Positions 3,714 through 24,209 are shown, counted from the first letter of the stretch. The stretch: DNA of 32,000 bases from Delftia acidovorans NBRC 14950 (GCF_001598795.1 NZ_BCZP01000001.1:586262-618261), one strand, 5' to 3'. Notes: generated by a model from the sequence alone, not told the origin. Numbers and translations are program-made.

Positions 3714-4604
3714 GTGAACCGAGTTGGATTTTTCATCACCAGCATTCTTCTGGCGCTCGCGCTGCTCAGCTCCATGCTGTTCGTCGTCGATCAGCGCCAG
3801 TTCGGCGTGGTCTATGCCCTGGGTCAGATCAAGGAAGTGATCACCGAGCCGGGCCTGAACATCAAGATGCCGCCGCCGTTCCAGAACGTGCGCTACATCG
3901 ACAAGCGCCTGCTCACGCTGGACAGCACCGACACCGAGCCCATGCTCACTGCCGAAAAGCAGCGCGTGGTCATCGACTGGTACGTGCGCTGGCGCATCTC
4001 CGATCCGTCGGAGTACATCCGCAATGTGGGCCTTGACGAGTCGGCTGGCGCCATGCAGCTCAACCGCGTGGTGCGCAATGCCTTCCAGGAGGAAATCAAC
4101 CGCCGCACCGTGCGCGAACTGCTGTCCAGCAAGCGCGATGCGCTGATGAACGACGTCAAGCGCGAAGTGCTGGAGACCGTGCGCGGCGCCAAGCCCTGGG
4201 GCGTGGACGTGGTCGATGTGCGCATCACGCGCGTGGACTATGCCGAGACGATCACGGAATCGGTCTACCGCCGCATGGAAGCCGAGCGCAAGCGCGTGGC
4301 CAACGAGCTGCGCTCCACCGGCGCCGCCGAAGGCGAGAAGATCCGCGCCGAGGCCGATCGCCAGCGCGAGATCACCATCGCCAATGCCTACCGTGATGCC
4401 CAGAAGATCAAGGGCGAGGGCGATGCAGAAGCCGCCCGGACCTACGCCGAGGCCTTTGGCAAGGACCCGCAGTTTGCGCAGTTCTACCGCAGCTTGGAGG
4501 CCTACAAGGCCAGCTTTGCCAAGAAGAGCGATGTGCTCGTGCTCGATCCTTCGCAGACCGATTTCTTCAAGGCCTACCGCAGTGGTGGAAGCTCTGGAAA
4601 ATAA
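3714..4604 (+). CDS. hflC: Protease modulator HflC (SPFH/band-7 family)
   Basis: GTG at 3714 lies 8 nt after GAGGAG (3700-3705). The protein has an N-terminal TM segment then an SPFH domain ([17 protein letters not shown]...). It immediately follows hflK. Confidence 0.92.
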
Positions 4605-7995: not shown

Positions 7996-8188
7996 TTGTG
8001 GCGGGTATTTCCATGCGCCGTTGTCATGCCTTGATGCAAGTCATGGATTGGCGCGCTTGCCGCGATATCTCGGGCCAACGTCGCGCAAATGTCGGTTTTT
8101 TGCACAGCAGCAAAAGCCGATGCCCCAGAGCGTCCGAGGGGCTGATTGGCGCAGCTACACTGCGCAGATTCTCAGAAGGTGGTGCTTT

Positions 8189-9352
8189 GTGAAACGTCTT
8201 TCCGTCGGGCGCTTGAGCGCGGCTGTGGCTTTGGTTGTAGGCGGCGGTGCGCTGGCCTGGCTGGCCGTGGCATCCCTGCCCGGATCCAAATCGGCCCGCG
8301 CGGCCTCGGCCACGTCTGCTGCCGTGCAGGCGCAAGCCGCATCGGCCCAGGCGGCCGCCGTTCCTGCCGCGCCTTCCGTTCCCTCGGCTACGGCCGCTCC
8401 CGCGGCCCCGGTCGCGCGTGTCACGCCGCCACCGCAGACCCAGGGCCCCACGCCCATCTTTGTGCTCAACTCGCTTGATGCCAACATCAGTATCGTGGAC
8501 CCGGTCACCTGGCAGGAGACGGCACGCATTCCCACAGGCAAGGAGCCGCATCACCTGTACCTCACGCCGGACGAGAAATCGCTGGTCGTGGCCAATGCGC
8601 TGGGCGACACCCTGACCCTGGTCGATCCGCGCACGGGCGAGGTGCAGCGCGTGATCCGCGACATCATCGATCCCTATCACCTGCGCTTCAGCCCGGACAT
8701 GAAGTGGTTCGTCACGGCGGCCAACCGCCTCAACCACATCGACATCTACCGCTGGGATGGCCAGAACCCGCAGCTGGTCAAGCGCGTGCCCACGGGCAAG
8801 ACGCCCAGCCATCTCTGGATCGATGCCAAGAGCACGACCATCTATTCCACCATGCAGGACAGCGATGCCCTGGTGGCCATCGACATCGCCACCCAGACCA
8901 TCAAGGCCCGCGTGCCCACCGGCCCCATGCCGGCCGATCTCTATGGCAGCCCGGACGGCACCAAGCTGTTCATCGGCCTGACCGGCAGCGATGGCGTGGA
9001 AGTGTTCGACGTCACCGGCCCCGAGCCGCGCAGCGTGGCCCGCATCAAGACAGCCGCTGGCGCCCACGCCATGCGCGCCGCCGGCGACGGCCGCCACCTG
9101 TATGTGAGCAACCGCGTGGCCAACACCATCAGCAAGATCGACATGCAGACCAACCAGGTCGTGGCCAACTACCCGGCACCGGGCGGCCCCGACTGCATGG
9201 ACGTCTCCGCCGACGGCCGCTACCTGCTGGTCAGCTCGCGCTGGGCGCGCAAGCTGTCGGTGATCGACACCGTGGAAAAGAAGGTGGTCCAGCAGGTCAA
9301 GGTCGGCAAGTCGCCGCACGGCGTATGGACGCTGGCCCACGCGCAACGCTGA
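8189..9352 (+). CDS. Exported YVTN-type beta-propeller repeat protein
   Basis: GTG at 8189 is preceded by AAGGTGG. The protein has an N-terminal signal/anchor (LSAAVALVVGGGALAWLAVA), an Ala/Pro-rich linker, then repeated blades (N..SVID, G..PHH/PHG, SPDG/SADG motifs). The stop overlaps the next start (TGATG). Confidence 0.7.
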   Translation: MKRLSVGRLSAAVALVVGGGALAWLAVASLPGSKSARAASATSAAVQAQAASAQAAAVPAAPSVPSATAAPAAPVARVTPPPQTQGPTPIFVLNSLDANISIVDPVTWQETARIPTGKEPHHLYLTPDEKSLVVANALGDTLTLVDPRTGEVQRVIRDIIDPYHLRFSPDMKWFVTAANRLNHIDIYRWDGQNPQLVKRVPTGKTPSHLWIDAKSTTIYSTMQDSDALVAIDIATQTIKARVPTGPMPADLYGSPDGTKLFIGLTGSDGVEVFDVTGPEPRSVARIKTAAGAHAMRAAGDGRHLYVSNRVANTISKIDMQTNQVVANYPAPGGPDCMDVSADGRYLLVSSRWARKLSVIDTVEKKVVQQVKVGKSPHGVWTLAHAQR

Positions 9353-10209: not shown

Positions 10210-11190
10210 GTGGACTGGTGGATTCAGTGGTTCGGTAATGCGCAGCAGCGCCTGTTCGAGGGCGTTGTCCAGCCCCTGCTGTTCGGCCTGGGGCAGGCCA
10301 GCCTGCTGGAGGACGCCTATGGCGCCACGGGCTGGCTGCTGGTGGGCCTGCTGCAGATCTTCATCATGGTGGCGGTGATCGCGCCGCTGCAGTACTGGCG
10401 GCCCGTCGAGCCCGTCACCGACCGGCGCGCCATCCACGTGGACATCATCTACACCGTGGTCCATCGGCTGGGCCTGTTCCGGCTTGCCCTGTTCTTCACG
10501 CTGGACCCGCTGTGGGACGAGCTCATGGGCCGCCTGCATGTCTGGGGGCTGCCGAGCTTTCACCTCGACGGCGTGTGGCCCGGCGTCACCGACCTGGCCT
10601 GGGTCAGCCTGATCATCTACCTGCTGGCCTTCGACTTCCTGGACTACTGGATACACCGCGGCCAGCACAGCATCGGCTGGTGGTGGAAGCTGCATGCGCT
10701 GCACCACTCGCAGCGCCAGATGACGGTGTGGAGCGACAACCGCAACCACCTGCTCGACGATGTCATCCGCGACACCATCATCGTGCTCGTGGCCCAGCTC
10801 ATCGGCGTGGCGCCGGGCCAGTTCGTGGCCATCGTGGCCTTCACCCAGCTCAGCGAGAGCTTCCAGCACGCCAACCTGCGCGTCTGGTTCGGCACCATCG
10901 GAGAGCGGCTGTGGATCAGCCCCCGCTTTCACCGCCGCCACCACGCCATCGGCATTGGCCACGAGCCCATGGCGCCCGTGCGCAACAAGAAGGCGCATGG
11001 CAACAACTTCGGCGTGCTCCTGCCCTGGTGGGACATGCTGTTCGGCACCGCCAACTTCGAGCTGCGCTTCGATCCCACCGGCGTGCGCGACCAGGTCCAG
11101 CCCAATGCCCAGGGCCAGCTGCGCGACTACGGCCAGGGCTTTTGGGCCCAGCAATGGCGTGGGTTCCTAAGGTTGATGGGTCGCGCTTGA
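10210..11190 (+). CDS. Sterol desaturase / fatty-acid hydroxylase superfamily membrane protein
   Basis: GTG at 10210 lies 6 nt after GGGAG. It is multi-pass hydrophobic and has three His boxes: HRGQH, HALHH and HRRHH. Confidence 0.8.
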   Translation: MDWWIQWFGNAQQRLFEGVVQPLLFGLGQASLLEDAYGATGWLLVGLLQIFIMVAVIAPLQYWRPVEPVTDRRAIHVDIIYTVVHRLGLFRLALFFTLDPLWDELMGRLHVWGLPSFHLDGVWPGVTDLAWVSLIIYLLAFDFLDYWIHRGQHSIGWWWKLHALHHSQRQMTVWSDNRNHLLDDVIRDTIIVLVAQLIGVAPGQFVAIVAFTQLSESFQHANLRVWFGTIGERLWISPRFHRRHHAIGIGHEPMAPVRNKKAHGNNFGVLLPWWDMLFGTANFELRFDPTGVRDQVQPNAQGQLRDYGQGFWAQQWRGFLRLMGRA

Positions 11191-11205
11191 GGCTGGGCTC
11201 GGGGT

Positions 11206-12105
11206 ATGCTTGCCAGCATGGGCTTGCTACTCGATTCCTTCTGGCGTGCGACGGCGTATTGCCTGCATAAGCGGGTGATTGCATGGTCGCTGTTTCCCTT
11301 GCTGTTCATGGCCATCACGGCCTGGCTGCTGGGCTATTTCTTCTGGGCCGATGCCGTCGTCTGGACGGAAGGGGTCCTGCAGGGCGTGGGCTGGCTGCAC
11401 ACCGTCTGGTCCTGGATGGGCGTGCAATCGCTGCCCGAGCTGGTGGCGCCGGTGCTGGTCGTGCTCTCGGTCACGCCGGTGCTGGTCGTGGTCTCGCTGC
11501 TGCTGGTGGCGCTGTTCATGACGCCGGCCCTGGTCGAGCTGGTGGCCCAGCGGCGTTTTCCCGCGCTGGAGCGCAGGCAGGGCGCCACCCTGGTCGGCAG
11601 CCTGGTGTGGTCCGCAGGCTCTTCGCTGATTGCCTTGATCGCGCTGCTGGTGTCGGTGCCGCTGTGGTTCGTGCCGCCCTTGGTGGTGGTGATCCCGCCG
11701 CTGATCTGGGGCTGGCTGACCTACCGCGTCATGGCCTTTGACGCGCTTTCTGCCCACGCCAGCAAGCCCGAGCGCCGCAGCCTTTTCCTGCGCCACCGCC
11801 TGGCGCTGATGCTCATGGGCGTGGTCTGCGGCTATCTGGGCGCGGCGCCGGCCATTGTCTGGGCCTCCGGCGTGGTCTTTATCGCGGCCTTCTGGATACT
11901 GATTCCGGTGGCCATCTGGATCTATGCGCTGATCTTCGCTTTCTCCTCGCTGTGGTTTGCCCACTTCTGCCTGGCCGCGCTGCAGCGCATGCGCGAGGAG
12001 GAACCGGCGCTGCCCGACACCCCCATCGTGCCCTACGCTCCCGACGCGCCGCTCGGAGCCGGCGCGGCCTCTCCCCCCTCCACCCCGCAAGAAAAGACCT
12101 CATGA
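11206..12105 (+). CDS. Multi-pass inner-membrane protein, EI24/CysZ-like (family assignment tentative)
   Basis: 299-aa strongly hydrophobic ORF with coherent codon usage. The N-terminus LLDSFWRATAYCLHKRVIAWSLFPLL resembles EI24-domain proteins as I recall them. It has a Pro-rich tail. Confidence 0.6.
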   Translation: MLASMGLLLDSFWRATAYCLHKRVIAWSLFPLLFMAITAWLLGYFFWADAVVWTEGVLQGVGWLHTVWSWMGVQSLPELVAPVLVVLSVTPVLVVVSLLLVALFMTPALVELVAQRRFPALERRQGATLVGSLVWSAGSSLIALIALLVSVPLWFVPPLVVVIPPLIWGWLTYRVMAFDALSAHASKPERRSLFLRHRLALMLMGVVCGYLGAAPAIVWASGVVFIAAFWILIPVAIWIYALIFAFSSLWFAHFCLAALQRMREEEPALPDTPIVPYAPDAPLGAGAASPPSTPQEKTS

Positions 12106-18948: not shown

Positions 18949-19725
18949 CTAGCCCAATGTCACGACGACCGGCGCATGGTCGCTGGGCTGCGGGTTCTTG
19001 CGCGGCGCGCGATCCACGCTGCAGGCGCTGACGCTGGGGCGCAATGCCTCGCTGACCAGGATGTGGTCGATGCGCAGGCCCCGGTTCTTCTGGAAGCCCA
19101 GCATCCGGTAGTCCCACCACGAATAGCTTTTCTCGGGCTGGTCGAACATGCGGAAGGCATCGGTCAGGCCCAGCTGCAGCAGCGCCTGGAAATGCGTGCG
19201 CTCTTCCACAGTGTGGTGGATCGTGTCCTTCAGGCCGATGGGATCGTAGGAGTCGCGGTCCTCGGGCGCCACGTTGAAGTCACCCACCAGCACCAGGCGC
19301 GGGTGGGTCGCCATTTCGCTTTTCACCCAGTCCTGCAGCGCCTGCAGCCAGCGCATCTTGTAGGCGAACTTGTCGGTGCCCGGCGCCTGCCCATTCACGA
19401 AGTAGCCATTGATCAGGCGCACCGGCCCGCCTTCGGCATCGAGGGTGGCAGCAATGATGCGGGCCTGCTCGTCATCCAGGCCCGGGATATTGCGCACCAC
19501 GTCGCGCACCGGCGTGCGCGTCAGCCAGGCCACGCCGTTGTAGGTCTTTTGCCCATGGCTGACCGCGTGGTAACCGGCCTCCTGCAGCGCCTGCAGCGGA
19601 AACTTGTCGTCGGTGAGCTTGAGTTCCTGCAGCGCCAGCGCATCGACAGGGTTGGCCTGCAGCCAGGCCAGCACCTGCGGCAGGCGCACGGACAGGGAAT
19701 TGACGTTCCAAGTGGCGATTTTCAT
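18949..19725 (-). CDS. xth: Exodeoxyribonuclease III
   Basis: The sequence runs MKIATWNVNSLSVRLPQVLAWL...GDFNVAPEDRD...RIDHILVS...SDHAPVV. These are the EEP-family catalytic motifs of Xth. ATG at 19725 is preferred to the longer track ORF. Confidence 0.93.
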   Translation of the reverse strand: MKIATWNVNSLSVRLPQVLAWLQANPVDALALQELKLTDDKFPLQALQEAGYHAVSHGQKTYNGVAWLTRTPVRDVVRNIPGLDDEQARIIAATLDAEGGPVRLINGYFVNGQAPGTDKFAYKMRWLQALQDWVKSEMATHPRLVLVGDFNVAPEDRDSYDPIGLKDTIHHTVEERTHFQALLQLGLTDAFRMFDQPEKSYSWWDYRMLGFQKNRGLRIDHILVSEALRPSVSACSVDRAPRKNPQPSDHAPVVVTLG

Positions 19726-19857
19726 TTGAAGAATGGTCCTTTGATTTGATTGTCGCATCACGGGTGGCAAGGCTACGATCCCGATGCTGATCTGCCTGGA
19801 GGAGCTTTTGGGAGGGCACATCAGAACCGTCACACTCCATCGACAAGACTATTCAAG

Positions 19858-22707
19858 ATGATGAACTGGCTCTCACAAGCCGCGCCCTGGCTGGCGCTGC
19901 TGGGCGCGATTCCCTTGCTGTATGCGCTCTCGCTGCTGCTGGCCACTTTGAACTGCATGCGCCTGCGCCTGCGTGCTGCGCCCATGGCCGTGGTGGAGCG
20001 CCAGGCGCTGGAGCCCGAATCACGGGCGGTGCTGGATGCCATGCGGCCGGAGTTGCAAGCCTTGGGCTTCACCTGGTGTGCCAGCCTGCAGGGCACGCAT
20101 CCGCAGGCCATGGATCCCGACCTGCCTCTGGAGGTGGACTTGTTCGGCCATGCCGCCGGGCGGGCCTGGGCGATGGTCCAGGCCGAACAGGCGGGAAGCG
20201 CCAGGCATGGCCGCACCGTGGGCTCCGTGACCTGGCTCACATTCTTTGCCGACGGGCGCAATTGGATGGGCTTCAATGGCCTACCTCAGACAAGCCTGCC
20301 TGCGCCGCCCGGCTGGACCTACCTGGACGATGCCCAGCCCGATACCGCATCGGCCTGGGCCGCCTACGCCGAGCGCCTGTCCGGCGACCGGGCTCCCGTG
20401 GTCCAGGGCCTTGACCAGGCGGTACAGCGCCTGGATGAGTGGGGCCGGAGCCAGGTCCCTGCACTGGTGGCCCAGGGCCGTGCGCTGCCTGCCGGGCCAG
20501 GGTTCTGGCGGCTCAGCTGGCGCGAGTCGCTGCGGCTGGCCTGGCGCGCCTTGCGTCAGGTGCGCAAGGAAGACAGGGCGGTGCCCGCCAGCCCATCTGC
20601 CGGCGCATGCCTTCATGGGCCGCAGGTCCGGCAAGTGTCCGAGGCGCTGCGCTTTCGCTACCAGAAAGCCGTGCAGCGCGGGCTGGGCATGGCGCACAAC
20701 CGCCACCGCAGTTTCTGGATCACGGCGGCGCTGTTCCTGGCAGCAGGCGCCGTGCTGTTTTCATGGGACATGGCGTGGATGCTTCTGGTGGTGATCGCCG
20801 TGCATGAAGGAGGGCATTGGCTGGCCATGCGCTGGGCGGGCTACCAGCGTCAATCCGTCTTCTTCATTCCTGGCCTGGGCGGCATGGCCACCGGAGAAAA
20901 GGCGGACGCCACGCCGCTGCAAAAAGTGGGCGTCTATCTGGCCGGTCCCATGCCTGGGCTGTTGCTGGCTGTGGGCGCGCTGGCTGCCGTAGGCTGGGGC
21001 CTGGTCCCGCAGCCACCCGCCTGGACCATGCAATTGCTGCTGCTGACCCTGGTCGTCAACGCCTTCAACCTGTTGCCCCTCACGCCTTTGGATGGCGGCC
21101 GCGTGGTGGAGAGCCTGCTGTTCGCTCGCCTGCCCGCAATGCGGCTGGTGTTTGCACTGGCGGGCATGGCCGCGCTGGGTGGGCTGGCCTGGTTCAGCCG
21201 GGACCCCCTGATCGCCATCCTCACCGGCGTGCTGCTGATGGGGCTGCCGTGGCAATGGCGGGTGATGCAACTGGAGCGGGCCATGCATCGCACCCTGCAC
21301 ACGCTTCCTCAACAAGAGGCATGCCAGGCCCCGGTCAGTGAGGCCGATGCCGTACACCGCGCATTCGGCGTGCTGCAGCAACCCGCTTTTGCGCGCTGGC
21401 CCTTTGTCCGGCGCGCGGCTGTTGCAGGCGCGCTGCTGCCTGCCTTGCAATCGCGTGCGCCCGGTTGGGCCGAAGGCGCAGCGGGCCTGGCAATCTACCT
21501 GGCCTGCCTGCTGCTGCCGGTGGCCATGGTCATGGGCATTCATCAAGCTGCGCCGCAGGGGCGGCAGGTTCTTGCTGCGCTGTGGGATGTGGAGCTGTCT
21601 GCCCGCCGTGATTACGTACCGGAGCAGCACCTGGCCGAGATCGAGGCCCGCCTGGCCCAGGCCGACCAACTGCCCCCGTCTGCCCAAGAGCAACGGGTGG
21701 AGATCTACCTGGAGGCCGCCCGGGAACTGCAACTCATGGACGACCATCCTCCGGCCGAGGCGCGCGCCAAAGCACTTTACCAATCGGCCTGGGCGATGAC
21801 GCAGTCCCGGGCACAGAGTGATCTGCAGCGTGCCCATGCATTGAAAGGCATGGCCGACACGGCGGATACCGCCGAGCAGGCAACGAATTTGCGCCAGCAA
21901 CTGGTGGCCGACCTGCAGGACGTGCAAGGCCCTGCACGCCGGGTGCTGGCCAGCGTGCAGGAAGTTCTTGCGTTCTGGGGACCGCCTGATCAGACCGTGG
22001 CGCAAAGGCTTGATCGGATGGTGCAGGCCGTGGAGATCCGCCGCGCCGACGCCGATGCGCCGGACGATTTCCTGCTGCTGCACGCGCGCATCAAGCTCGC
22101 CCGGTTGCTGGATGCCAGCGGCCACCCCGAAGCGGCGCAAGCCCAGTTGCAGGCCAATGTGATCGCGCTCCAGGCTGCGCTTCAGGCAGCGCCGCAAGCG
22201 GCGCATGCCGTGACTGCGGATTCGGCTCAGCGCCGTGAATGGAAAATCTTCTCATTGATGCAGGCCGAAACCCTGCATGCCCGGTTCATGGCCGAGCACG
22301 GCCAGACTGGCGCTGCCGTGGCACTGGCCCGCCAAACCGTGGAGCGCATCCCGCCGAAGAAGGCCGGCCACTACGCCTCCCAGGACAGCTGGATCGCCTG
22401 GCTCTGGATTGCCATAGGCATGGGTGATGCCGCTGAAGTGCGCCAGGCCCTGGAGCAACAGCTGCCTGCACCCCGTGCATATGCCGAAATCGGAATCGCC
22501 CAGGCCCGGCTGGCCGCCGCGCAACTGCTGAACGACGATGCCCTGCGCATGCAGGCACTGGCCGCGTTGCAACCGCTGTCCCAGGCGCGCCACGTTGCGC
22601 TTTGCAGGAGCCCGCGCGTGGCGCGCGACCTTCATAGCGACTGGCAAAACCTGGAGCGCAGGCTCCAGCACGAGTCTGCGCAGGCCGCAGGACTGTGCCC
22701 CCGATAG
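19858..22707 (+). CDS. Large membrane protein with a central M50 (site-2 protease) domain and a C-terminal helical-repeat region
   Basis: HEGGH (HExxH) is encoded at 20803-20817 within a TM helix. NAFNLLPLTPLDGGR (NxxPxxxLDG) lies at about 21058-21100. Multiple TM segments and roughly 400 aa of Ala/Leu/Gln-rich helical sequence follow. The start is ATG 19858 or 19861. Confidence 0.75.
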   Translation: MMNWLSQAAPWLALLGAIPLLYALSLLLATLNCMRLRLRAAPMAVVERQALEPESRAVLDAMRPELQALGFTWCASLQGTHPQAMDPDLPLEVDLFGHAAGRAWAMVQAEQAGSARHGRTVGSVTWLTFFADGRNWMGFNGLPQTSLPAPPGWTYLDDAQPDTASAWAAYAERLSGDRAPVVQGLDQAVQRLDEWGRSQVPALVAQGRALPAGPGFWRLSWRESLRLAWRALRQVRKEDRAVPASPSAGACLHGPQVRQVSEALRFRYQKAVQRGLGMAHNRHRSFWITAALFLAAGAVLFSWDMAWMLLVVIAVHEGGHWLAMRWAGYQRQSVFFIPGLGGMATGEKADATPLQKVGVYLAGPMPGLLLAVGALAAVGWGLVPQPPAWTMQLLLLTLVVNAFNLLPLTPLDGGRVVESLLFARLPAMRLVFALAGMAALGGLAWFSRDPLIAILTGVLLMGLPWQWRVMQLERAMHRTLHTLPQQEACQAPVSEADAVHRAFGVLQQPAFARWPFVRRAAVAGALLPALQSRAPGWAEGAAGLAIYLACLLLPVAMVMGIHQAAPQGRQVLAALWDVELSARRDYVPEQHLAEIEARLAQADQLPPSAQEQRVEIYLEAARELQLMDDHPPAEARAKALYQSAWAMTQSRAQSDLQRAHALKGMADTADTAEQATNLRQQLVADLQDVQGPARRVLASVQEVLAFWGPPDQTVAQRLDRMVQAVEIRRADADAPDDFLLLHARIKLARLLDASGHPEAAQAQLQANVIALQAALQAAPQAAHAVTADSAQRREWKIFSLMQAETLHARFMAEHGQTGAAVALARQTVERIPPKKAGHYASQDSWIAWLWIAIGMGDAAEVRQALEQQLPAPRAYAEIGIAQARLAAAQLLNDDALRMQALAALQPLSQARHVALCRSPRVARDLHSDWQNLERRLQHESAQAAGLCPR

Positions 22708-22730
22708 GTATCGTCGGGGAGGGCGCGCGC

Positions 22731-22919
22731 ATGCCGGCAGCGCAGGGCCAGCTATCCGCAGGCCCTGATGAAACCCCACCGAAAGAGAGCGCCGGGCCCT
22801 GCCCGCAGCATACGCAAATGCTTGATCTACTCGTCATTCACGCCACGCTGCCCGATGGCCGCCAGGACATGTCCATCGCCTGCCTCGCCACGACCTTCAT
22901 GGCACCGGGCAGACCTTGA
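22731..22919 (+). pseudogene. 5' remnant of a codA-type amidohydrolase gene (truncated duplicate)
   Basis: GGGGAGGG (22716-22723) is followed after 7 nt by ATG 22731. The ORF encodes ...PCPQHTQMLDLLVIHATLPDGRQDMSIA, almost identical to the start of codA at 24126-24209. It then diverges (CLATTFMAPGRP) and stops at TGA 22917-22919. Confidence 0.6.
22796..22880 (+). repeat. Direct repeat, left copy (85 nt)
   Basis: It aligns base-for-base with 24125-24209 at 81/85 identical positions. The mismatches are at 22799, 22809, 22817 and 22856. Confidence 0.95.
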
Positions 22920-22936
22920 ATCAGATTGATCTGATT
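22919..22936. repeat. Palindrome AATCAGAT-TG-ATCTGATT
   Basis: It has perfect 8-bp inverted arms separated by 2 nt. It sits right after the remnant ORF stop, at the GC-to-AT composition change. Confidence 0.9.
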
Positions 22937-23022
22937 TCATCTCGGATGAAAGGTGTCTACGATTGAAAATTTGCCAAGGAAATGCGGCCTTGGAATTTTT
23001 TCATTATCCGGAGGTATTCAAA

Positions 23023-24045
23023 ATGCATATATTCATAGGTGCTTTTTGCAGAATAAACAAGGCTGTCATGATATTTATTTTGGCAATGATGGCCACCTCC
23101 GCATGGTCCGTATGCGCAATTAAAGATACAAGTGATGGGTCAGGCTATTACAAGTATGTGTTCAGTAATTTCAATCCTCCAGAATTCAATCCCAATGTGG
23201 CCAAGAACACGGTGATTTACTCAAAAACCGCTATAGCGGTAATGAGTAATGGGGTTGGCGCTAGATTGATGAATTGTAATCCAATGGTCACGGGCTATAT
23301 TGTAGGTAAATCTACACCAGTCAATAATATATACCCGACGACAGTCGAAGGTATTGGAATCAGGGTTTCGTCTGGATATGGTGCTGCGCCTGTAAGTACT
23401 GCGCAGTATTCCAATCACCCCGGATCTTTTGCATATCAATATTCCGTTGTCACAGTTGAGTTGATCAAGACCGCAGATGGCGATATCACTGCAGGTGGCG
23501 TGCTGGACAGCGATTTCCTGTACGAACGCGCGAATGATGCATTTGGCCAGCTTCTCGCTCAATACAACTTTTCCTCGCCTGTCGTCCTCCGGCCCAGGGT
23601 GCCCACCTGTACCCCACAGGCGCCGGAGCCCGTGCGCATGGCCCAGACTGTCGCTCCAAAACTCACCTCAATCGGCTCAACCGGTGCTCCCCGCTCCTTC
23701 CTCATCTCGTTGTTGTGCAAGGGCGGCATCCCAGGTTCGTTGACCAGCGCCTATGTCACGCTGACGGATGTGGCAAATCCTGGAAATATCGGCAATGCTC
23801 TGACCCTGTCGAAAACCTCGGTGGCAAAAGGTGTGGGAGTCCAGATTCGCAAGGGTGAGCAGATCCTGGGATTTAGCCCGGACTCCAATGCCGCCGGCAA
23901 CAGGAATCAATGGTTTGCAGGGGCTGTTGCCTACGGGCAGGCGCGGTTGGATATCCCGCTGACGGCGCGCTATGTCAAGACCGAAGAGAACGTGACCATA
24001 GGCAGTGCCAATGCGGCGGCGACCTTCACCATCAGCTACCAGTAG
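23023..24045 (+). CDS. Chaperone-usher-type fimbrial adhesin (N-terminal receptor-binding-like domain plus C-terminal pilin domain)
   Basis: GGAGG (23010-23014) lies 8 nt before ATG 23023. The signal is ...MIFILAMMATSAWS. There is a Cys pair in the N-domain (VCAIK...MNCNP) and a pilin-domain Cys pair (PTCTPQ...ISLLC). The motifs GIGIRV and GVGVQI are present, as is the typical C-terminal strand ANAAATFTISYQ. At 340 aa it fits FimH-like tip adhesins. Confidence 0.8.
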   Translation: MHIFIGAFCRINKAVMIFILAMMATSAWSVCAIKDTSDGSGYYKYVFSNFNPPEFNPNVAKNTVIYSKTAIAVMSNGVGARLMNCNPMVTGYIVGKSTPVNNIYPTTVEGIGIRVSSGYGAAPVSTAQYSNHPGSFAYQYSVVTVELIKTADGDITAGGVLDSDFLYERANDAFGQLLAQYNFSSPVVLRPRVPTCTPQAPEPVRMAQTVAPKLTSIGSTGAPRSFLISLLCKGGIPGSLTSAYVTLTDVANPGNIGNALTLSKTSVAKGVGVQIRKGEQILGFSPDSNAAGNRNQWFAGAVAYGQARLDIPLTARYVKTEENVTIGSANAAATFTISYQ

Positions 24046-24124
24046 TTCCCCCCTGATCCCTTGCGCTTTCGGTCTGACCGCTGGCAGGCCATTCAGCGTG
24101 GTCAGGCAAGTCTGCGGGTGTGCG

Positions 24125-24209
24125 GCCATGCCCGCAGAATACGCAGATGCTTGATCTACTCGTCATTCACGCCACGCTGCCCGACGGCCGCCAGGACATG
24201 TCCATCGCC
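24125..24209 (+). repeat. Direct repeat, right copy (85 nt), forming the 5' end of the intact codA
   Basis: See the left copy. The offset between the copies is 1329 nt. Confidence 0.95.

Follow-up and report, generated by a model that had tools for sequence, protein, structure and literature searches.

The interval between xth and codA in a 32,000-nt stretch of Delftia acidovorans DNA (called the window here; coordinates are 1-based positions in it) holds an M50-family protease gene, a partial copy of the codA 5′ end, a fimbrial adhesin gene (fim) and then an intact codA. Three configurations of this interval, their junction sequences and their conservation were observed among Delftia genomes. 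On balance, the configuration in the window probably arose when DNA of an M50-codA type was joined illegitimately to a fim-codA chromosome, with the M50 block as the incoming piece. The M50-codA parent, the choice of incoming DNA and the enzymology are parts of this account that we infer.

A preliminary description, made from the sequence of the window, had reported an 85-nt direct duplication of the codA 5′ end with 81 of 85 positions identical. With a repeat finder, the duplication proved to be one base longer on the left. The two copies, at 22795–22880 and 24124–24209, are 86 nt long, are identical at 82 of 86 positions (95%) and have a spacing of 1329. The four mismatches (22799/24128, 22809/24138, 22817/24146 and 22856/24185) lie exactly where they had been placed. 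The longest mismatch-free run shared by both copies, a 38-nt exact core, occurs twice in the window compared to zero expected (100 shuffles), and only two copies of the repeat are present within the window. The repeat corresponds to codA from −23 to +63. As had been described, similarity ends sharply at the left and right edges of both copies. The right copy runs into a full-length codA. The left copy is a pseudogene fragment that opens a 33-codon open reading frame (ORF), closed by TGA at 22917–22919, and is followed by a low-GC segment (0.39–0.46 at 22900–23500, rising to ~0.6, with flanks at 0.65–0.70). The 1243 nt bracketed by the two copies contain a single gene, which encodes a 340-aa fimbrial protein. 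The duplication was seen in independent assemblies, including the complete genome CP002735.1, and is therefore not an assembly artefact. The parts of the interval are listed below.

18949–19725, minus strand: xth, exodeoxyribonuclease III (NCBIfam TIGR00195, 253 bits)
19726–22794, plus strand: M50 block, comprising a 132-nt upstream region, the protease coding sequence (CDS) at 19858–22707 and an 87-nt downstream spacer
22795–22880, plus strand: left copy of the repeat, a codA 5′-end fragment with a 23-nt leader and 21 codons (82/86 identical to 24124–24209)
22878–22880, no strand: illegitimate junction, where the codA fragment and the spacer preceding fim have a 3-nt microhomology (GCC)
22881–23022, plus strand: fim 5′ non-coding region, kept from the fim-codA arrangement (sequence, terminator scans and alignment conservation)
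23023–24045, plus strand: fim, an orphan two-domain chaperone-usher tip adhesin (PF22003 and PF00419)
24046–24123, plus strand: fim-codA intergenic region, with a GC-rich hairpin at 24111–24138 that straddles the start of the right copy
24124–24209, plus strand: right copy of the repeat, with the 23-nt leader of the resident codA plus its first 21 codons
24147–25418, plus strand: intact codA, cytosine deaminase of 423 aa (NCBIfam NF005748, 796 bits; cut-off 438)

Some loci that lack the left copy were informative. Three Delftia loci (L100, from a 639-kb contig, L098 and L096) carry what we term the type-2 arrangement, consisting of xth, a 220-nt spacer, fim and codA. They were found by scanning metagenome contigs with a 33-nt core of the repeat, plus one Logan contig. 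The xth gene forms the left homologous flank in every arrangement, and homology between arrangements stops at its start codon (19723–19725). Specifically, the type-2 loci follow the window, with 97% identity, as far as 19725, continue into 220 nt of unrelated sequence and are colinear again from 22878. In BLAST comparisons of L096, L098 and L100, homology resumed at 22878–22881, which is the boundary between the left copy and the fim cassette. In these loci the left copy is absent and M50 does not occupy this position, and fim, the right copy and codA are retained. At the joint, codA reads ...CATCGCC/GTGCAG and the type-2 spacer reads ...GATGGGGCC/TGCCTCG (slashes mark the joint), with GCC in common. 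The 3.15-kb M50 block plus codA fragment stands in place of the 220-nt spacer, or of 150 nt in a second junction variant.

The second variant, found in Delftia sp. Lp-1 (L083) and Cs1-4 (L089, CP002735.1), has a 57-nt left copy followed by the last 70 nt of the type-2 spacer, with a 1-nt microhomology at the joint. Because these 70 nt are retained, the 220-nt spacer represents native fim upstream sequence and not filler. The two variants agree in the M50 block, in the 87-nt spacer and in three differences within the first 57 nt. The left copy is invariant across the six genomes with the window-type junction, and Lp-1 and Cs1-4 keep its first 57 nt only; the right copy is invariant in all 10 Delftia genomes compared, including those that have no left copy. 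The M50 block was found in L083, L088, L089, L099, L101 and L103 and is missing from L100 and L098, and L096 has a 73%-identical allele elsewhere. The preliminary description had taken the bracketed fim gene as the inserted piece. This was not borne out, as the M50 block and left copy are what vary between genomes, and three loci have fim-codA without M50.

Fourteen Delftia loci were sampled in total, six of them ascertained by an exact 33-nt probe from the repeat. The order M50, partial codA copy, fim and codA was present in D. acidovorans L088, Lp-1 and Cs1-4, relatives that were found via the contexts of near-identical M50 proteins, and identical codA, fim and M50 proteins are encoded in D. 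acidovorans GCA_000741825.1. The same four differences between left and right copy occur in D. acidovorans genomes, Lp-1, Cs1-4 and metagenome contigs. Since both the structure and these differences are shared by several Delftia lineages, the duplication is old, either inherited or spread, and is not strain-specific, which contradicts the recent single-strain insertion proposed earlier. Neither the 14 Delftia loci nor the JGI metagenome collection had the repeat anywhere but at this locus, so the concern that it might be a multi-copy genomic repeat can be set aside. The Logan contigs with a D. lacustris-type M50 all stop 53 nt into the left copy, the usual behaviour of a de Bruijn assembler at a repeat. 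A 1359-bp Logan contig with fim (window 22826–24184) was considered as an excised circle and rejected, as its ends are those expected of a k=31 graph break in the 38-nt core.

Under the favoured account, the xth-codA slot in Delftia would have alternative contents: fim-codA, which was observed, and M50-codA, of which the left copy would be the sole trace. The incoming DNA, of the M50-codA type, would have extended 63 nt into codA. In a recipient chromosome with fim-codA, this end would have been joined illegitimately, at the GCC microhomology, to the spacer that precedes fim, and the other end would have been resolved by homologous recombination in xth. The outcome would be a gain of M50, a loss of the 220-nt spacer and an 86-nt codA 5′ pseudo-fragment left behind as a direct repeat. 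Such a process would be homology-facilitated illegitimate recombination (HFIR), and the product would be no different after a single crossover of a re-circularised fragment. In this view, the four mismatches would represent the difference between two parental codA alleles. The event would be old, and several Delftia lineages would since have acquired the composite by spread or inheritance. Of the earlier reading as a whole, the class of mechanism (homology-assisted or Campbell-type integration) stands, and its recency, its polarity and an upstream codA start do not.

A second scar of the same kind was found in L096 and is counted as support for this account. There, a 3.1-kb insertion with an M50 allele 73% identical in nucleotides lies between a 284-aa upstream gene and xth. 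It is flanked by a 91-nt direct duplication of the xth 3′ end (949–1039 and 4145–4235, 83/91 identical), and the L096 flanks are 97% identical to the window. The fragment copy has L100-like single-nucleotide polymorphisms (SNPs), and the intact xth end has window-like SNPs. M50 therefore counts as an accessory gene of high divergence, and recombination of this type has brought it into the neighbourhood more than once.

The M50 block, and not fim, is mildly favoured as the incoming piece by sequence comparison. This preference follows from four observations: the fim-codA form exists and the M50-codA form was not found; the sequence edging the M50 block is more diverged from type-2 than the backbone is; backbone synonymous divergence (pS) is no greater to type-2 than within M50-bearing genomes; and M50 itself has the lowest pS. 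Three M50-linked SNPs lie in xth (19699, 19711 and 19722). Divergence from type-2 amounts to 3/27 sites at the xth 5′ end plus 4/86 in the left copy vs. ~2% elsewhere (P = 0.008), and the excess divergence of the M50 flanks was also significant by Fisher's test (P = 0.018). For xth, pS was 0.086 between M50-bearing and type-2 genomes and 0.093 within M50-bearing genomes, and the corresponding values for codA were 0.051 and 0.041; backbone synonymous divergence between the two groups is no larger than within the M50-bearing genomes. The pS of M50, 0.029, was the lowest among the genes compared (xth 0.093, codA 0.041). Local trees were tried as a further indicator of polarity and discarded, with fim alleles shuffled among configuration types and the local phylogeny uninformative.

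Several points weigh against this account. The M50-codA parent was found in 0 of the 14 Delftia loci, and the corresponding exact-flank pattern, with M50 directly before codA, gave zero matches in the metagenome collection. The product is symmetrical, in that a fim-codA fragment entering an M50-codA chromosome would give an identical sequence, so only modest divergence statistics from a highly recombining locus bear on polarity. The 86-nt and 57-nt junctions need two events, or a longer common ancestor that was trimmed twice. The sample is small, with six loci found by the exact 33-nt repeat probe, and we know of no natural competence in Delftia. The empty site that had been suggested as a check, M50 directly followed by codA, did not appear in other genera either: neither M50 nor fim was near codA among the 80 loci listed (species-representative genomes), where the best of the codA matches listed from other genera had 86% amino-acid identity. 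Distant M50 homologues (62% and 51% identity) had unrelated neighbours and showed no deep empty site. Excision of the cassette by recombination between the repeats, also proposed earlier, is possible but unsupported, and the empty junction was not found in the metagenome pattern scan.

The opposite polarity must be weighed first among the alternatives, although we regard it as doubtful. In this case the ancestor would have been xth-M50-codA, and a fim-codA fragment (spacer position 220 to codA +63) would have been inserted, either as a circle, by a single crossover of Campbell type within the 86 nt of codA homology, or as a linear molecule that was anchored in codA and joined illegitimately at its left end. 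Both routes would give the same final sequence as the preferred model. Repeats that bracket the fim cassette are the classic signature of a single crossover, and single crossovers of degraded, re-circularised DNA in E. coli leave short duplications of the homologous end (PMC3240628). The L096 scar could be read likewise, with the bracketed M50 allele as the insert. However, the recipient that would be needed, M50-codA without fim, was not found, whereas the fim-codA form exists, and a crossover would have had just 86 nt of homology with four mismatches and a longest perfect run of 38 nt. The composite backbone (xth, codA) is also not more diverged from type-2 than it is among composites, and the extra divergence is limited to the edges of the M50 block.

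Another explanation, which we consider unlikely, is that both junction variants descend from a larger composite that was cut by two independent deletions, giving the 86-nt variant and the 57-nt plus 70-nt variant. That ancestor would have held a longer codA fragment and the whole spacer, perhaps with an xth fragment, and the length of the repeat would be a product of decay. The M50 block, the 87-nt spacer and the three differences in the first 57 nt, all shared by the variants, are consistent with this, and neither junction variant can be derived from the other by simple deletion. Yet no genome with a longer intermediate was seen, three events are required instead of two, and the clean microhomology at the window-type junction fits a primary illegitimate joint.

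Less probable still is that the M50 block is a mobile module lacking a recombinase, with an undescribed insertion mechanism that makes ~90-nt duplications. This idea is based on two independent events at neighbouring sites, with duplications of 86 nt (codA 5′) and 91 nt (xth 3′), and on an M50-bearing parental arrangement that was unobserved in both. The similar lengths are either a coincidence or a hint of a specific mechanism, and the latter is unlikely. If true, such a module would mean a specific insertion mechanism rather than two chance illegitimate joints.

A mobile element carrying fim is very improbable, whether a transposon, an integron cassette or an integrase island, for which the 86-nt repeat would serve as att site or target-site duplication. 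Direct repeats do surround a single gene of atypical GC, and other strains do have integrase islands in this neighbourhood. Against this, no integrase or transposase was found within 10 kb of the locus, no terminal inverted repeats pair the cassette ends (repeat finder), no tRNA was found in the window, and the cassette is unmatched in plasmid and phage collections. In type-2 the cassette occurs without the left repeat, and native sequence extends it there by a further 220 nt. The integrase islands lie 3 kb off, directly against the xth 5′ end, and every occurrence of the unit is at this locus. The preliminary description was therefore right to set the repeat apart from transposase-type target-site duplications, and the locus differs from a transposon with such a duplication in having no transposase, no terminal inverted repeats and no copies of the unit at other loci.

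Compared to known systems, the structure is a natural example of a recombination scar of a known kind and does not represent a new kind of element. HFIR couples an insertion with a deletion at 3–10 bp of microhomology, and it has been reported in Acinetobacter baylyi, Streptococcus pneumoniae and Pseudomonas stutzeri and, at low frequency, in E. coli conjugation (PMC3240628). The Delftia locus resembles it in several respects. The xth flank is homologous and colinear to 19725, and the other joint lies at a short GC-rich microhomology, GCC; several kb were gained and a recipient segment (220 or 150 nt) was lost, with no recombinase gene involved. It differs in that the Delftia event is natural and ancient and was inferred from comparative genomics rather than observed, in that the second homology of the incoming DNA (the codA 5′ end) would have gone unused and left the direct repeat, and in that the donor arrangement, M50 directly upstream of codA, was not found at the loci examined.

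In a Campbell-type crossover, as here, the insert is bracketed by direct repeats of the end of the target gene. Single crossovers of degraded, re-circularised DNA in E. coli, at lacZ, gave 109–950 bp duplications of the homologous end (PMC3240628), and the 86-nt repeat is just below that range. Unlike in that system, the homology at the Delftia locus is very short, with 5% mismatches, there are no plasmid or replicon sequences, and the required recipient arrangement (M50-codA without fim) was not seen. For type VI secretion system (T6SS) modules of Vibrio cholerae, an HFIR-like displacement that keeps the old genes has been proposed (PMC5361080). The Delftia locus is similar to such displacement arrays (V. 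cholerae T6SS effector-immunity modules and Rhs/CDI orphan C-terminal modules; PMC5361080) in that a new module was added beside the old one, a short fragment of a conserved neighbour gene was duplicated, and the mosaic locus is shared by recombination. In contrast to those arrays, the M50 protease and the adhesin have unrelated functions and do not form a toxin/immunity pair, and a single step is seen at the Delftia locus, with no array.

The locus offers a clean natural example of a gene gained without losing the alternative gene of the same chromosomal slot, through a one-sided homologous exchange of which the short gene-fragment duplication is the only trace. It also illustrates that a repeat around a gene does not reveal which gene was inserted, and that relatives can change or reverse the inference. 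The xth-codA interval is a recombination hot spot in Delftia, with an accessory M50, defence islands in some strains and an orphan, diversifying adhesin.

The protein encoded by fim combines a signal peptide with an MrkD-like receptor-binding domain and, at the C-terminus, a pilin domain, and both Pfam scores are above their cut-offs (PF22003, 34.5 bits vs. 27; PF00419, 60.6 bits vs. 25.6). A ribosome-binding site, GGAGG, is present at 23010. In these domains fim resembles MrkD/FimH-type tip adhesins, and as in other adhesins its binding domain appears to be under diversifying selection; it differs from them in standing alone, as no chaperone or usher gene was found within 10 kb on either side. 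Across ten genomes (the window, L083, L088, L089, L096, L098–L101 and L103), the binding domain (codons 30–180, 23110–23562) had a nonsynonymous divergence (pN) of 0.071 and a pS of 0.037, giving a pN/pS of 1.93, and the pilin domain had a pN/pS of 0.39. This argues for a functional fim with a binding domain probably under diversifying selection. Alleles of fim, which differ by up to 10% in nucleotides, are common to different locus configurations. Taken with the pN/pS values, this allele sharing indicates a likely combination of diversifying selection and recombination. A diversifying adhesin may matter for surface attachment in Delftia, which is a common environmental and opportunistic bacterium.

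The nearest relatives of fim outside Delftia are stand-alone adhesins beside a chaperone-usher operon in Burkholderia cenocepacia (42–47% identity). Within Delftia, a paralogue with 36% identity is the terminal gene of a complete FimA-chaperone-usher operon at another locus (L094), and the orphan fim product may be assembled by this distant operon. The GC contents of the first and second halves were 0.46 and 0.62 for the Delftia operon paralogue and 0.52 and 0.60 for the Burkholderia homologues. Since fim homologues also have GC-poor N-terminal halves, the low GC of fim is a trait of the N-terminal domain in this adhesin family and not proof of recent foreign origin. In B. cenocepacia CP013396.1 (L093), two stand-alone paralogous two-domain adhesin genes (8001–8993 and 10931–11929) are isolated by long intergenic gaps next to one chaperone-usher operon. 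The pair looks like a set of alternative tip adhesins.

Two sequence features were noted upstream of fim. A perfect palindrome, AATCAGAT-TG-ATCTGATT (22919–22936), begins at the stop codon of the left-copy ORF, and a conserved hairpin with a T run (22974–23003), which resembles a bidirectional terminator, ends ~20 nt before the fim start codon. They suggest a possible attenuation of fim, or its insulation, from upstream transcription. A similarity between the M50 3′ end (22626–22653) and 22891–22918 was rejected as chance (local score 14, shuffle maximum 16–18).

The start of codA was also investigated, as the preliminary description had hinted at an ancestral start further upstream. Among the matches listed, a start codon aligned with residue 1 in 77 of 80 homologues, which supports the ATG at 24147, and 36 of the 80 had an in-frame stop within 15 codons upstream. 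Translations upstream of the start were not conserved among homologues. The hint had come from third-codon positions, which account for three of the four mismatches (P = 0.11). An upstream start is rejected.

Conservation within codA was uneven. From −23 to codon 26, 103 nt were invariant in 10 Delftia genomes, and the 25 codons after codon 26 had a pS of 0.24, seven times that of the rest of the gene (0.033). Among the five genomes not found by the repeat probe, variable sites numbered 0/103 vs. 11/73 (P = 4e-5). Neither synonymous constraint across genera nor an Rfam match accounts for the invariance of these 103 nt. A cis-regulatory RNA in the repeat was considered and rejected: the best Rfam match, with an E-value of 0.035, reached 21 bits where the gathering score is 70, folding gave z-scores of −0.9 and +0.4 for the two copies, and synonymous sites of codA codons 1–26 were not conserved across genera. 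The hairpin at 24111–24138 has a 12-bp stem, and the fold z-score of the region was −2.4. The 5′ arm falls within a hypervariable stretch, with six variable sites in 24111–24123, and the 3′ arm within the invariant repeat.

On the other side of the interval, the M50 CDS encodes a 949-aa product of the site-2-protease family (Pfam PF02163). A role as a known defence protein was considered and dropped, as no PADLOC or NCBIfam match was obtained. Just upstream of M50, the xth 5′ end (equivalent to ~19699–19725 of the window) persists as a 22–32-nt remnant that is abutted by three different islands, in L089 (1–5870), L099 and L084, and it looks like an integration hot spot. The Cs1-4 island encodes a tyrosine integrase and a Gabija defence pair (GajA, 787 bits; GajB, 733 bits). 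In L097 (834–2761), xth and an M50 allele with 74% identity are separated by two extra genes (356 and 289 aa) with no Pfam or PADLOC match. In the second of these genes, a nucleotidyltransferase-like GxLDVD motif was read from the sequence only.

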